IMG/VR virus record: IMGVR_UViG_3300045988_144812
Coordinates: 64,001 to 128,000 of that record
From: a virus
Length of the DNA: 64,000 nt
Strand: one strand, 5' to 3'
Positions within the stretch are counted from its first letter, which is position 1, and each line of letters opens with the position of its first letter. The notes under the pieces were generated by a model. The model was not told the DNA's origin. It did no database searches and saw only the letters and a program-made list of their open reading frames with translations. This document shows positions 23,656 through 26,747 of this stretch, in pieces. The position numbers were made by a program, and so were the translations under genes.

Positions 23656-23666
23656 GTTTAAATTAA

Positions 23667-23702
23667 ATACTACTACCCTAAAAAGGTAGTAGTATTTTTT
23701 TT
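23667..23702. terminator. hairpin terminator, possibly bidirectional
   Basis: ATACTACTACC/GGTAGTAGTAT, with T8 on the + side and a U-rich tract on the - side. Confidence 0.7.
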
Positions 23703-24600
23703 GATTTAAATTCGACATATTTCGTTTCCACCACTACCGACCACCTCCCCTACCCCGCCGCCTTTCGACGACGAGGCAGGATCAACAGTAGCCGGCCCAA
23801 GAATGAACTTCAAGCTTTCGCCATCTGTCCTCCTCGGTATAAAGACCTTCAGTATTCACCTTGCATCAGCACAGCGTTAGCCGTTAACATCAGTTTAGTT
23901 TCAACCTAAGCCTTCTGACAAGTCCCGTCTGCACCGAAGCGCCTAACAGTCCCTGCAGAGAATGCACGCGCACCCTCAAGTCCTGACCTTGCATAGCAAC
24001 CGCACAGCTCGACCAAGTAAAGTGACGACTAAAAGCCGCCTATCTCTCGATACCCAGCTCCAAAAGGAACTCGTAAGCTCAAAAGACTCTCGAAAATCAA
24101 TTCAAATATCCAAATCAAAAAGACATGAACACCTAAACAGATAATCAAGAATCTTTTGGATTACGCAATGAACATTATCTCCTTGCGGAAACAACATCCA
24201 AAGGGATACGAGAAACAGACTACTTCTAGCTGAAACCCTACCTAGCCGAACCGGATAGACCGTATAGCGGACTCTCTTGGGATATAACGCACCTCTCTAC
24301 AGTTCGTGCCGTAAGCCAGTGTTTCCACTAACCTACCCGCCTACTAAGCCAGACGAGGTACCGCCTGTTCGCCCTGGTGCATTACTACACAGGTTCAACT
24401 CTTACGAGCCGAAAAGCTGGAGGGAAGCCATTTCTCAGACTTGTCGCAGACATGATCGAACGATAACAATAGTATCTCACCTCTTAAAAGAAGTTCAACA
24501 CACTGCTAACAGCGCATACATTTTTACATTAGCCAGAAAAGCCTAGATTAAAACCAAACCAACATCAACGACCACAGCCATACCAATTACAAAGCAAACA
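23703..24600 (-). ncRNA. candidate large structured non-coding RNA (family not recognised)
   Basis: G+C-rich and strongly C>G on the + strand, with no credible ORF. Several hairpins need G-U pairs and so form only in minus-strand RNA; they have GAAA, GCAA and UUCG loops. The boundaries are approximate. Confidence 0.45.
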
Positions 24601-24879
24601 CTAAAAGTCTAAATACCAAGGAATCTTAATAGGATCCATACCTTAGATAGGATAGTTTTACATCGTATTTACGAATACTAACCTATCTGTTAAGAGGTAT
24701 AGGTCTAGCTAAAATAGCTAATTAAACTTATACAAAAAATGCCTGTATAAGCCTAACTATCTAAATCAACCAAACTTAATAAACTTTCTATTCTTAGTTA
24801 AAAACAATAGTAAAAAAGTAGATAAAAAAGAAAATATAGAAGTAATGAAAAGTTTAAAAAGTATTGTTAGAAGTATTGA

Positions 24880-24946
24880 TTTTGTAGTTATTATTAAGAT
24901 TATTATTAGTATATTTGTATTTAGATTTATTATTAGTATTATTAGT
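24880..24946. repeat. left arm of a perfect 67-bp inverted repeat
   Basis: TTTTGTAGTTATTATTAAGATTATTATTAGTATATTTGTATTTAGATTTATTATTAGTATTATTAGT is the exact reverse complement of 26047-26113. Confidence 0.95.
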
Positions 24947-25008
24947 TTTTGTAGTTAGTTGTAGTTGTAGTTTTTGTTGTAGATAGTAGTTGTAGTTTGG
25001 AGATAAGT
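24947..25008. repeat. cluster of TTGTAG(T/A) short direct repeats
   Basis: TTTGTAGTTAGTTGTAGTTGTAGTTTTTGTTGTAGATAGTAGTTGTAGTTTGG lies directly inside the left IR arm. Confidence 0.8.
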
Positions 25009-25135
25009 TCTCTAGATTTTACTCTTCATAATAGAGTAGTAACTTAAGAAAATCACTACTCTATTATAAAGACTGAAACTACTTCTTCATATACACCTAG
25101 TAACTGAAATATTTTTTCAAGATGTTAGAAAAAGA

Positions 25136-25177
25136 ACCAGTCTATACGACTCCCCCACGAAGTGAGTATAGACTGGT
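25136..25177. other. 12-bp hairpin with a C-rich 18-nt loop
   Basis: ACCAGTCTATAC ... GTATAGACTGGT. Confidence 0.7.
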
Positions 25178-25700
25178 GGAGTTTAACATGCGAAAATAGG
25201 AAAATTCGAAAAGAATAGAATTTAGCTGGATTGGAAACAGCTTAACTTTGTCTTTTCATACAGAGTACCATTCTGAAAATTATCTCTTATCTTATCATCG
25301 ATGTTTATACAAACTGTCTAATAACACTAATGGATTAATAGTTTTAAAATTAGTATTTTGTAAATTTGTTAAAAATGGAATAGTGTTTAAATGGCTCTAG
25401 AATGCTCTAGGATTGATTTTCTTTGTTAAGTAAGGACATTTATCATCCTGACTATTTAATCCCTCTAAAATCGCTTCTATTGGCTTGTAATCGATATTGG
25501 TGTATAATTGCTAGTATAGCGATTTATAGTTCTTGATTATAGAACTACATCTGGATGTATTGGTGTATTAAAACCATCTTAGCCTATCTAACGTAGTGGG
25601 TGATATTACACAATGGTATTGTATTTGCTCTAGCATCATTTAGTCCTTTTGTGTAAACTAGGATTTATTGGCTTTGGTATTAAACACTCTAGATTCATCT

Positions 25701-25808
25701 TGCGCTGCGCTACTCTCACTCTGGTTATTTATCACCTACTGTCTAATTGGGTAATGCGCTGCGCTATACTAACTTTGGTGTTTGTTACCTACTGAAATAG
25801 TCTAGTGA
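25701..25808. repeat. two imperfect tandem ~54-bp units, each starting TGCGCTGCGCTA
   Basis: Unit 1 is 25701-25754 and unit 2 is 25755-25808. They share TGCGCTGCGCTA and ...ACCTACTG. Confidence 0.75.
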
Positions 25809-26046
25809 TATTTTACAATGACTGAATCGAGAACGGATATAGTTTGTCTTGAGATAGTGTTTAAATGGTTTTAAATGAGTTCTCGCTATTCAGGGATAAA
25901 TTTGCTTAAAGTAAAAGTATTTAAATTACGTAGTAATTTAAATACATATCCTTAGAGATTTTAAAACTAATTAATATAAATATTAATTAGTAATAGTTAA
26001 TAAGTAATATCTATCTATATTACTAAAGTAATATATCTAGATATTT

Positions 26047-26113
26047 ACTAATAATACTAATAATAAATCTAAATACAAATATACTAATAATAATCTTAAT
26101 AATAACTACAAAA
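26047..26113. repeat. right arm of the perfect 67-bp inverted repeat
   Basis: Exact reverse complement of 24880-24946, checked base by base. Confidence 0.95.
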
Positions 26114-26383
26114 GCAAAACATCAGAACAAAACATTATAAACATTACAATACGGCTATATTTGCTTTTGTAGCTACGTATTTACTATAGTTTATTAACTA
26201 TTACTATTCTATCTATTCTTACTTTATTTAATCTATTTTACTTTACTGTTATTATTAGAAAAATAAAAGTATTATAAGAAATATATCTAAAATATACCTA
26301 AATACTGGTATTTTAGATAATAAATAGATTTATTTTGTATAATAACAATTATTTTTTATATAATAAGATTTAATTTATTATTA

Positions 26384-26601
26384 GTATAAAAGAAATGGTA
26401 TTATTAGTATTAGATACATTATTCCTTTCACCCATAAACGCTACCGCTGGGTGAGTGAAAGGAATAATGATTAGAATTTGTTAAAGAACTTATTAGGATT
26501 TATAAAATCCATTATTAGTATTATTAGGAAAGAAATACTTTTATTACCTTAATTACTTACTTTACTGATTTAGATAACAATAATACATTATTAGTATTTA
26601 G
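26384..26601. repeat. dispersed ATTATTAGTAT iteron-like copies
   Basis: Copies near 26386, 26400, 26511 and 26587. The same 11-mer occurs twice in full, plus one overlapping partial copy, in each IR arm. Confidence 0.75.
26416..26468. other. 15-bp hairpin with a G+C-rich apical part
   Basis: CATTATTCCTTTCAC ... GTGAAAGGAATAATG. Confidence 0.7.
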
Positions 26602-26662
26602 GTAACAAAATCCCAAAGTGTTAGAGGGGCGTCAAGCCCGAGGTAGATTAGTATTCTAGATT

Positions 26663-26692
26663 ATTTCAAATATATACTATTTAAGTGAACCT
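26663..26692 (+). promoter_or_regulatory. promoter-like motif
   Basis: ATTTCAAATATATACTATTTAAGTGAACCT, at the right edge of the ORF-free island. Confidence 0.5.
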
Positions 26693-26747
26693 AGTAGAGA
26701 AATCTACTGAAACACTTTAAACTAATCTTTGTATAAGGATATCCAAA

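Follow-up and report, generated by a model that had tools for sequence, protein, structure and literature searches.

The window analyzed in this work, i.e., the whole stretch of 64 kb of phage DNA, contains a region between positions 23,656 and 26,747 that had been described in an earlier note as an island almost free of ORFs in a tightly packed genome. The region 23,248-26,747 contains only two ORFs of at least 60 aa, both on the plus strand, located at 23962-24144 (60 aa) and 24277-24546 (89 aa, with a TTG start), and the longest ORF on the minus strand has 39 aa, in agreement with that description. According to a crude gene call, the island is by far the widest internal non-coding gap of the window, followed by 18,946-19,901. 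Since there are other gaps of 150-950 nt, the statement that the genes elsewhere are separated by tens of bases is true for most gene junctions, but not for every one. The G+C-rich and strand-skewed block proposed at the left of the island was also found (GC 0.40-0.52 and GC skew -0.16 to -0.31 at 23.6-24.6 kb; window mean GC 0.34), and the top three 300-nt stretches of the entire 64 kb in terms of A+T content (16-20% GC), at 24,771, 25,808, and 26,129, are all within the island. The cumulative GC skew of the window tracks the orientation of the genes, without any inflection where the island lies. All the coordinates of the earlier note that we have checked were correct.

To the left of the island proper there is a decayed copy of a small plus-strand gene (23273..23655) that would encode 133-134 aa if intact. 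The syntenic ORF is intact in the relatives L002 and L012, whereas the copy of the window carries a GAA to TAA change at codon 7 and a frameshift further on, and does not contain any ORF of 30 aa or more. Thus, the decayed gene postulated at this side is real. The tRNA region postulated at the same side comprises a single gene, a tRNA-Tyr encoded on the minus strand at 20,085-20,168, and no further tRNA genes were found to the left of the island. The terminator scan has identified a stem-loop followed by a T-run at 23665-23697 (13-bp stem and TTTTTGATTT), which is an intrinsic terminator of the left plus-strand genes. Its stem shows compensatory substitutions in L006, L010, and L012, and the T-run and GATTTAAA are unchanged. 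On the minus strand, an A-run precedes this stem-loop and a U-rich sequence comes after it, and thus, the stem-loop probably also marks the predicted 3' end of the minus-strand RNA described below.

At the right side, the plus-strand gene series restarts with an early-promoter-like motif (26665..26690; CAAATATATACTATTTAAGTGAACC). The sequence TATATACTATT at 26,671 fits the consensus AAAyATATACTATTwAmGTG, which has five sites in the window, all of them on the plus strand and each followed, after 14-77 nt, by a start codon of the same strand. The motif at 26,671 is kept in L006 and L010. The proposal that a phage promoter restores the normal gene organization at this point is sustained. The first gene past the island (26748..26948, plus strand) encodes a hydrophobic protein of 66 aa and is followed by a terminator at 26952-26987.

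The G+C-rich block (23700..24630) is the top folding outlier of the 64-kb window on the minus strand, and folds less than expected on the plus strand. Compared with dinucleotide shuffles, its MFE z-score is -18.7 on the minus strand (MFE -423 kcal/mol) and +0.3 on the plus strand; for 23700-24720, the minus strand reaches an MFE of -450 kcal/mol versus -205 kcal/mol for the plus strand. The predicted fold of this core of about 0.93 kb has 370 pairs in 931 nt, with ~79% of the bases paired, and the shape of a rod, since its maximum ladder distance is 237 compared with 142 ± 23 in shuffles. The basal helix of 83 bp pairs 24622-24534 with 23917-23831, and it is continued by helices of 11, 10, 18, and 45 bp up to the apical hairpins 24203-24166 and 24165-24072. 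The 3' domain consists of two hairpins (23830-23736), and the 3' end of the RNA is a G-rich domain followed by the invariant AAAUCAAAAAAAA. There are six GNRA tetraloops, the side hairpins being GNRA-capped; the loops vary inside the GNRA class (GUAA/GAAA/GCAA), and UUCG loops are also present. Upstream of the core, three to four hairpins at 24633..24755 (minus strand) would form a 5' accessory region of the same predicted transcript that is more variable between clades, with a CGUAAAUACG loop region that is kept.

To analyze the evolution of this fold, two alignments were used. In the alignment of nine sequences (382 pairs), 99.2% of the cells are paired, and there are 23 compensatory pairs versus 9.0 ± 1.8 in shuffles, none of the 500 shuffles reaching 23, and 2-7 when the partners are slid. 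The larger alignment contains 20 distinct sequences from independent metagenomes (IMG/VR and others) and yields 333 pairs with 99.88% canonical cells, 26.4% of G-U, 16 compensatory pairs, and 58 pairs with one-sided changes, chiefly G-C or A-U to G-U transitions. When the same pairs are read on the plus strand, only 73.5% are canonical. As the diversity is limited to three clades at ≥87% identity, most of the pairs (259 of the 333) are invariant and carry no information on the structure. The four helices of the 5' accessory region are 92-93% paired, with nine compensatory pairs, and in the L021/L041 clade the counterpart of 24633-24755 has a different sequence that forms hairpins nonetheless. 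In summary, the block combines a structure kept by compensatory and wobble changes above the controls with a thermodynamic stability on one strand beyond what its composition explains, as generically expected for a structured ncRNA.

The block is also the best-conserved segment across 18 kb, more so than any neighboring gene. Its identity with the distant clade is 90-93%, compared with 77-86% for the RNAP gene, and the genes at the left side cannot be aligned; overall, the neighboring genes have diverged by 15-35%. This high conservation could partly stem from a recent exchange of the block between clades and not from constraint alone. The substitutions keep base pairs and not codons. A coding role of the two plus-strand ORFs was considered and rejected, since in other clades both are interrupted by stops or frameshifts; they are chance ORFs. 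The longest open stretch of the block among the relatives has 80-93 codons, in shifting frames, and on the RNA strand the open stretches, limited to 39 aa in the window, have 51-85 codons in the relatives, with frames that also shift.

These data establish how the element folds and on which strand, that it is conserved, and that it is non-coding, and on this basis we consider it very probable that 23,700-24,630, with 5' hairpins extending to ~24,755, is a structured RNA gene of ~0.93-1.07 kb predicted on the minus strand. Since the skewed block is a minus-strand RNA gene, its plus strand appears C/A-rich and featureless. The earlier note missed this gene, its rod of ~330-370 bp, and the chance nature of the two ORFs. 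As a quarter of the pairs are G-U, folding is limited to the minus strand, and the block is no true palindrome at the DNA level. The sense strand (G 29%, C 17%) is C-poor and U-rich, which can be explained by the tolerance of C-to-U changes opposite G. A search for antisense targets revealed no complementarity of the RNA to the remainder of the window above shuffled controls.

The RNA does not match any family catalogued in Rfam. The cmscan of 23300-27000 against Rfam 15 (both strands, E ≤ 10) only gave noise-level microRNA/snoRNA matches, none of them inside 23700-24760, and the covariance models of GOLLD, ROOL, OLE, raiA, and HEARO had no match at this threshold. At the gathering threshold, the whole window contains only two group I introns and the tRNA-Tyr. 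The island and its two flanking proteins have no match in GenBank phages (megablast, blastn, and tblastn), and the sole match found there corresponds to the RNAP beta subunit, with ~30% identity in the closest cultured relatives. A transition-tolerant R/Y pattern of the block found no copy in 185,579 GTDB species genomes, and thus, a host origin of the RNA is without evidence. The sister genus (L055 and L056; RNAP 54% identical) has a different gene order and shows neither a homologue nor a comparable folding outlier in the ~7 kb covered. L019 was discarded as a relative because its similarity was a chance 19-mer match in a high-GC actinophage. A second folding outlier of the window, at 5.3-5.8 kb, was also discarded, since it is a true protein gene, rich in G+C, that possesses a ribosome-binding site as well as a terminator. 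Our literature searches for large RNAs in jumbo phages have retrieved nothing comparable.

The search for the promoter of the RNA gave no candidate on the minus strand. The early motif has no upstream minus-strand copy, the sigma-70 scan was not above shuffles, and no conserved copy of an AR9-type (AACA-N6-TA/G) or phiKZ-type (TATG) late motif was found by eye. The promoter-like sequence ATATACTAAT, found in the repeat arms described below, agrees with the core at eight of nine positions and points outward on either arm. It was nevertheless rejected as the RNA promoter, because the distant clade has an altered version and the frequency of the 8-mer does not exceed chance.

The right part of the island has a very different nature. 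A perfect inverted repeat of 67 bp had been proposed and was indeed found (24880-24946 with 26047-26113) as the longest perfect part of two arms of 77 nt that are 96% complementary, i.e., a left arm (24870..24946) and a right arm (26047..26123). The 10-bp iteron TTATTAGTAT occurs eight times in the window, always within 24,903-26,597 (expected, 0.78; none of 100 shuffles reaches eight). Two copies are in the left arm (24903 and 24930), two minus-strand copies are in the right arm (26054 and 26081), and four direct copies (26378, 26401, 26512, and 26588) are in the AT-rich field (26124..26650), where the GC content falls to 0.135, as anticipated for an AT-rich iteron field. This field also contains further short repeats and a hairpin with an 18-bp stem (26417-26469). 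The description of the repeat-bounded block as extremely AT-rich applies to the arms and to 25.9-26.4 kb, where the GC minimum of the window is located (0.135-0.20), but not to the interior at 25.0-25.9 kb (GC 0.24-0.375). The 1.1-kb spacer between the arms (24947..26046) is rich in indels and lacks ORFs longer than 50 aa; it has conserved patches at 24955-25111, 25371-25502, and 25701-25807 and a covarying hairpin at 25138-25180. The possibility that this spacer was a second giant RNA was dismissed, since its folding energies are ordinary on both strands (-278 and -243 kcal/mol).

The left arm is almost invariant in the distant clade L006/L010, which keeps the arm iteron copies and has weaker ATTATTAG copies in the AT-rich field, and the right arm is 100% identical in close relatives and 93% identical in the distant clade. 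In the L021/L041 clade the RNA is kept but the left arm has diverged and its iterons seem to be absent, an observation that weakens a strict functional coupling of the RNA gene and the repeat element. At least seven independent contigs end inside the island, with many assembly breaks at the left arm. These ends do not represent physical genome ends, since the spanning contigs are collinear and the breaks are due to a 67-77-bp inverted repeat placed in DNA of 14-20% GC. The element has a short motif clustered within 1.7 kb (the eight TTATTAGTAT copies) next to an AT-rich region, as iteron-type origins do; among 40 proteins of the window, scans against Pfam or PHROGs recognized no initiator and no dsRNA-binding protein. 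A DNA-level role of the inverted repeat and the iterons is plausible: judging from its repeats and composition, the region 24,870-26,650 is most likely an AT-rich DNA element that binds a phage protein, and it is origin-like, possibly a replication origin.

We consider it likely, with some reserve, that the island combines two components, an RNA gene and a DNA element; it is not decayed DNA. The idea that it is a remnant of protein genes derives from the real pseudogene directly at its left and from the two short plus-strand ORFs, but decay affects solely that small gene. In none of the relatives does the block contain a longer ORF, both ORFs are broken in other clades, the block is conserved above every neighboring gene, and its changes preserve pairs instead of codons. 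The relatives do not carry intact genes at the syntenic position but the same non-coding architecture, so we give this explanation practically no credit. The same non-coding layout and the pairing-type substitutions support the expectation that non-coding DNA of this size has an RNA- or DNA-level function. The presence of clear DNA-level repeats also suggests that the island could act only as DNA, as an ssDNA hairpin or a cruciform for replication or packaging, with no functional RNA. Nevertheless, the 26% of G-U pairs would be G-T mismatches in DNA, and the complementary strand, being only 73.5% canonical, would form a poor cruciform. Changes directed to G-U and GNRA/UUCG loops that vary within their class are RNA signatures, and both are found here, which makes a DNA-only feature highly improbable. 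We also consider it very unlikely, if slightly less so, that the 1.25 kb bounded by the repeat represent a MITE- or IS-like mobile element or a DNA switch whose inversion controls the neighboring RNA gene and operon. Terminal inverted repeats of such length around a non-coding segment and the assembly breaks at the arms, as in invertible segments, would fit this explanation, but these breaks have the simpler cause given above. Moreover, in the 14 distinct assemblies spanning the spacer, it always lies in the same direction with respect to the RNA gene, which is not the behavior of an inversion switch. The flanks of the arms differ (tattgtta / agaacaaa), with no target-site duplication, the arm motif has no second copy in the window, and no recombinase or transposase was recognized among the neighbors. 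Finally, the arms are better conserved than the interior and their position is fixed across diverged clades.

Concerning the function of the RNA, we propose that it might act in trans as a long dsRNA-like particle. The rod would be a specific ribonucleoprotein with dense partner contacts along its length, or a self-assembling RNA particle, and it might also sequester a host factor that recognizes dsRNA, e.g., a nuclease of the RNase III class or an immune cyclase that senses RNA. The fixation of the helices in both sequence and pairing (259/333 invariant, with neighbors diverged by 15-35%) points to dense partner contacts, and this conservation at the sequence level argues against a generic piece of dsRNA. 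A trans-acting ribonucleoprotein, decoy, or particle, as opposed to a role in replication, has in our opinion about an even chance of being correct, and any single named partner would be unlikely. In the replication alternative, the RNA, transcribed away from the AT-rich iteron/repeat element, would form or regulate an R-loop primer at an origin, in the manner of ColE1 RNA II or of the T4/T7 origin transcripts. In its favor, the RNA gene of every clade adjoins the iteron-bearing DNA, which is the most AT-rich of the window, its G-rich sense strand favors R-loops, and the 3' G-rich domain with the invariant AAAUCAAAAAAAA recalls the A-run of the ColE1 primer terminus. However, ~79% of the RNA is engaged in very stable intramolecular helices kept by compensatory change, which compete with an RNA-DNA hybrid, and the A-run is also simply what the T-run of the plus-strand terminator looks like on the opposite strand. 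In addition, the L021/L041 clade retains the RNA with a diverged left arm, and the origin identity of the repeats is itself a candidate reading. We therefore regard a replication role of the RNA as unlikely.

A bolder reading, which we put forward tentatively and at somewhat less than even probability, is that this rod of a kilobase, viroid- or obelisk-like and encoded by a DNA phage as a dedicated gene, belongs to a hitherto undescribed class of giant phage RNAs acting as dsRNA particles. Such a rod could sequester or mislead a host dsRNA nuclease or immune sensor, could exert a control on one of the phage multisubunit RNAPs similar to that of a giant 6S RNA, or could self-assemble via its GNRA-capped side arms. 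The heavy use of G-U might be an evolved way to store a 350-bp RNA duplex in DNA, avoiding an unstable palindrome and a foldable antisense strand.

The 6S RNA is a rod-like regulatory RNA that imitates the DNA of an open promoter and traps RNA polymerase. The island RNA is likewise rod-like and largely double-stranded, but it is five times longer, has no Rfam 6S match, and lacks an obvious large bubble at its center. A polymerase-directed RNA is conceivable, since multisubunit RNA polymerases are encoded by the phage itself. Any link of the island RNA to a polymerase is pure conjecture. Like the ColE1 RNA II and the T4/T7 origin transcripts, the island RNA is a predicted structured, G-rich transcript with a 3' A-run located by an AT-rich, repeat-bearing, origin-like region; unlike them, it is directed away from the repeat field and is far more self-paired. 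The repeats share with iteron-type origins the multiple copies of a 10-bp motif, direct and inverted, beside the most AT-rich DNA of the region, but here they are divided among a direct array and two inverted arms separated by 1.1 kb, and no initiator gene was recognized nearby. The parts of a 2026 review on jumbo phages retrieved by a keyword search contain no replication origins of phiKZ-like phages and give non-coding RNAs one sentence (PMC13282480).

The adenovirus VA RNA is a structured viral RNA that engages immune sensors. The cabRNA of staphylococcal phages, which is sensed by CBASS, arises from coding transcripts and activates immunity (PMC10686824). The island RNA resembles both as a long structured viral RNA whose dsRNA character could be read by, or could block, a host sensor, but it differs from cabRNA in being a stand-alone non-coding gene, with a conjectural partner. 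GOLLD and ROOL are giant ornate RNAs of phages and prophages (PMC12286853). They share with the island RNA a very large (0.6-0.8 kb class), ORF-free, phage-encoded, and strongly conserved ncRNA with many GNRA-capped hairpins and a tRNA gene a few kb away. In contrast, the island RNA, which matches neither model in Rfam (E ≤ 10), is built on one long near-continuous helix axis (83-bp basal helix, ladder distance 237) instead of many multi-way junctions, is unusually rich in G-U (26%), and has been found so far in one phiKZ-like jumbo-phage lineage only. Obelisks have been described as RNA elements (PMC10827157). The island RNA shares with them and with viroid-like rods a length of ~1 kb, a predicted rod over most of the molecule, and an apparently human-associated origin of the samples. 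However, it is DNA-encoded within a phage genome and is not an RNA-only replicon, it lacks an ORF of the size of Oblin-1 (~200 aa), the longest having 39 aa in the window, and it has no match to self-cleaving ribozymes in Rfam.

New classes of large RNAs have each opened new biology, e.g., ribozymes and RNA-only cages. To our knowledge, large structured RNAs (several hundred nt or more) of no known function are rare, and the island RNA would rank among the longest, with an unusual shape, i.e., a near-continuous rod with a quarter of its pairs G-U. The locus thus offers a candidate RNA for structural work, a candidate dsRNA-based phage-host interaction, and a candidate origin-like site in a phage group that, as far as we have found, has no mapped origins. 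It also teaches that, in genome scans, a non-coding block that looks C/A-rich and featureless can represent the opposite strand of a folded RNA rich in G and U.

The RNA block has been found so far in one lineage only, i.e., uncultured and apparently human-associated phiKZ-like jumbo phages, where it lies in DNA assemblies of ~250-kb phage genomes (more than 25 contigs). The source samples appear to be human-associated, as their identifiers are of the HMP style, and one related contig has been placed in a MAG labelled Gemella.

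The G+C-rich block of the ORF-poor island (23,656-26,747) is very probably a minus-strand RNA gene, with a predicted core at 23700-24630. The minimum free energy of 23,700-24,720 is -450 kcal/mol on the minus strand and -205 kcal/mol on the plus strand, and, against 40 dinucleotide-preserving shuffles, the z of the 931-nt core is -18.7 for the minus and +0.3 for the plus strand. When the whole window was scanned in 300-nt segments, the block was the strongest minus-strand outlier (z -5.7), and its plus strand folded more weakly than expected from composition (z +2 to +3.6). In the window copy, the 931 nt are held together by 370 pairs (about 79% of bases paired), and a 1,071-nt version contains 160 A-U, 151 G-C, and 102 G-U pairs. 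Since G-U pairs turn into C-A on the other strand, the plus strand is C/A-rich and featureless; this also accounts for the strand skew that the earlier note had reported in a G+C-rich block, a description borne out by a GC of 0.40-0.52 at 23.6-24.6 kb and a GC skew down to -0.31.

The two plus-strand ORFs named in that note are indeed the only ones of at least 60 aa in 23,248-26,747, and the longest minus-strand ORF there has 39 aa. The two plus-strand ORFs are not coding: the 60-aa ORF has two stop codons in the second clade, and most relatives carry a frameshift or a truncation in the 89-aa ORF, whose substitutions are not codon-like.

The predicted minus-strand fold is built on an 83-bp basal helix (24622-24534 with 23917-23831), from which a rod with side hairpins along its axis runs on through four further helices (11, 10, 18, and 45 bp) and ends in two apical hairpins (15 and 39 bp). 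It is followed by a 3' domain of two hairpins (23830-23736) and preceded by three to four accessory 5' hairpins (24755-24633). With a maximum ladder distance of 237 base pairs, versus 142+-23 in shuffled sequences, the fold is unusually extended and rod-like. GNRA tetraloops cap six of the hairpins, and by eye GCGCUUCGGUGC is also compatible with a UUCG-capped hairpin.

Comparison with relatives supports the same structure. An RNAalifold consensus over an alignment of nine relatives contains 382 pairs, with standard pairs in 99.2% of cells. Both-sided changes occur at 23 pairs, versus 9.0+-1.8 after column shuffling (0 of 500 shuffles reached 23) and 2-7 when the partners were slid by 1-3 columns. 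A transition-tolerant R/Y pattern search of the metagenome collection enlarged the set to 20 distinct sequences, which fall into three clades and share 87-99.5% identity. Their 333 consensus pairs are canonical in 99.88% of cells (26.4% G-U), any non-canonical cell being confined to 5 pairs; 58 pairs show a one-sided, wobble-mediated change and 16 a compensatory change. Read on the plus strand, the same pairs are only 73.5% canonical. In the hairpin CGUCGUC-GAAA-GGCGGCG, one pair is U-G in the window and U-A and C-G in the relatives L002 and L010, respectively, and two tetraloops change only inside the GNRA class (GUAA/GAAA/GCAA at 24405, GCAA/GAAA at 24186). Variable columns make up 11.7% of the paired and 19.4% of the unpaired positions, and most vary by transitions only.

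The block is 90-93% identical to that of the distant clade (contig 3300006743_000001) in 250-nt bins; in the same comparison the RNA polymerase gene is 77-86% and other genes are 63-82% identical, and the genes immediately to the left of the block cannot be aligned. In this clade (L010/L051), unrelated genes replace two small genes and a pseudogene at 22250-23650, and therefore the RNA gene lies at the edge of a recombination-prone variable region. The decayed gene that had been noticed on this side is a true pseudogene, with a nonsense codon and a frameshift in the window and an intact ORF of 133-134 aa in the relatives L002 and L012. The second-largest ORF-free gap (18946-19901; 956 nt), beside a minus-strand tRNA-Tyr (20085-20168), differs from the RNA block in that no alignment to the distant clade is possible and the folding is not unusual, so that it looks like a variable region and not like another RNA gene.

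Even at E<=10 the block has no match among the models of Rfam 15, a library that does detect the introns and the tRNA of the window. No copy was found among the GTDB species genomes, nor any homologue in the limited DNA available from a sister genus of phages. Literature searches returned nothing comparable, and in a keyword search a 2026 review of jumbo-phage biology mentioned non-coding RNAs only in passing. The RNA resembles GOLLD and ROOL in its size, phage location, conservation, and lack of a known function (PMC12286853), but it belongs to neither family (Rfam, E<=10) and its architecture is dominated by a rod. In shape and length it recalls Obelisks and viroids (PMC10827157), but it is DNA-encoded and has neither an ORF of Oblin size nor ribozymes. 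Among giant phage ncRNAs, we rate this large structured RNA as a new family, sampled in one genus-level lineage.

The RNA would be mostly a long A-form helix, whose natural partners would be dsRNA-recognising proteins or other copies of itself. As many as 259 of the 333 pairs never vary, while the neighbouring genes have strongly diverged. The conservation of both sequence and pairing argues for contacts along much of the rod and not for a generic dsRNA; such contacts might be those of a specific RNP, or tertiary or quaternary packing through the GNRA-capped arms. A recent exchange of the block between clades could add to its conservation. Complementarity to the rest of the window does not exceed chance, and thus antisense regulation of nearby phage genes is unsupported. 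The main rival, in which the RNA acts in replication as a primer or through an R-loop, has in its favour that the gene adjoins an origin-like site, yet the RNA is kept where that site has changed, and we consider it improbable. The idea that it regulates the phage polymerases in the way of a giant 6S RNA is more speculative. Taken together, the helix, the sequence conservation, the lack of an above-chance antisense match in the window, and the retention beside a changed site favour a trans-acting particle.

We therefore give roughly even chances to a trans-acting, dsRNA-like particle, i.e., an RNP, a decoy, or a self-assembling RNA. Conceivable targets would be a nuclease of the RNase III class or an immune cyclase that senses RNA; such RNA sensing exists in staphylococci, where CBASS senses cabRNA (PMC10686824). 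We put forward tentatively a more radical view, in which the DNA encodes a dsRNA particle dedicated to acting against the host or on a polymerase. The C-poor, U-rich sense strand and its high G-U content can be explained by tolerated C-to-U changes opposite G. The DNA of the gene is only 73-75% self-complementary, so that neither a long perfect palindrome nor an antisense transcript able to fold arises.

The rest of the island agrees with what had been seen at first reading. It holds the three most AT-rich 300-nt segments of the window, and its inverted repeat (24870-24946 and 26047-26123) is 77 nt long at 96% complementarity, of which exactly 67 bp are perfect (24880-24946 with 26047-26113). 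The iteron TTATTAGTAT occurs eight times in the 64 kb (0.78 expected), always inside 24,903-26,597: two copies per arm, 27 nt apart, and four further copies in direct orientation at 26,378-26,597. The promoter motif noticed at the right edge, TATATACTATT at 26,671, is one of a five-member consensus upstream of plus-strand genes. Diverged clades hardly differ in the two arms and in the DNA directly beyond the right arm, up to about 26,180, and the distant clade keeps the arm iterons, with weaker ATTATTAG copies on the right. The 1.1-kb spacer (24947-26046) has many indels and few conserved patches, and its folding as RNA is merely ordinary. ATAGTGTTTAAATGG is present in it twice, exactly (25380-25394 and 25854-25868), and 25-mers containing TGCGCTGCGCTA are found at two places 54 nt apart (25701-25725 and 25755-25779); in both cases the distant clade has kept the first copy.

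At least seven independent contigs of about 250 kb begin or end at the arms; contig 150481, for example, begins at 26,114 and stops at 24,879. The orientation of the spacer segment relative to the RNA gene is identical in all 14 distinct spanning assemblies. We therefore put the contig ends down to failed assembly at an inverted repeat of 67-77 bp in DNA of 14-20% GC, and neither to inversion nor to genome ends. A transposon is unlikely, since the segment has no target-site duplication, no other copy in the window, and no recognised recombinase among its neighbours. Iterons next to the DNA richest in AT make up the classical layout of a replication origin, and by this analogy an origin is our preferred, though far from secure, reading of the element; the alternative is a partition-like or regulatory binding array. 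Cumulative GC skew tracks transcription and gives the origin reading no help, and the L021/L041 clade of relatives has no recognisable left-arm iterons.

In the clade of contig 3300045988_120546 (L041 6913-7260, L008 1-420), T-rich low-complexity DNA devoid of TTATTAGTAT lies between the RNA gene, kept at 87% identity, and the spacer; the inverted repeat may not be universal. At a contig end of the sister genus (L056 15300-15839), two similar hairpins of about 80 nt precede T-rich low-complexity DNA where the contig stops, possibly an AT-rich structured region that is analogous but not homologous and likewise breaks assemblies.

The source of the window is a phiKZ-like jumbo phage with a mean GC of 0.34 in the window, which encodes a phiKZ gp29PR-type protein, a split multisubunit RNA polymerase beta subunit, an NAD-dependent ligase, and ribonucleotide reductase genes with an intein, and which carries two group I introns. 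These introns, at 39166-39429 (plus strand) and 47622-47991 (minus strand), pass the Rfam gathering threshold; one splits the large-subunit gene and the other comes after the small-subunit ORF. An intein with a homing-endonuclease domain (Hint, Intein_splicing, and Hom_end matches) is also present in the N-terminal part of the large subunit (47906-50080, minus strand). Among GenBank phages there was no match to the island or its flanking proteins, and the RNA polymerase beta subunit is only about 30% identical to its counterparts in cultured Chimalliviridae. IMG/VR and other metagenome assemblies hold close and more distant relatives as contigs of about 250 kb, several with sample ids in Human Microbiome Project style. 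One related contig was found in a MAG labelled 'uncultured Gemella sp.', a weak hint to host or habitat that is probably a binning artefact. A YadA-like, trimeric-autotransporter-type protein with head, stalk, and anchor domains is encoded at 30155-31561, and a copy with 84% identity is found on an 80-kb contig (L045; run ERR589670) binned under the same label, which is probably a mis-binned related phage and a lead to habitat and host.

A dCTP deaminase and a phosphatase-family protein are encoded near each other (6351-6998 and 8373-9413). In PBS1/AR9-type phages such enzymes help to substitute uracil for thymine in DNA, and by analogy the DNA of this phage might be so modified, which would also be relevant to promoter recognition. 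Directly downstream of an early-promoter-like motif at 5187, two genes (5262-5735 and 5805-6257) with their own ribosome-binding sites and terminators have a GC of about 0.5, versus 0.34 for the genome, and are outliers in the folding scan too; either high expression or a recent acquisition is conceivable for them.
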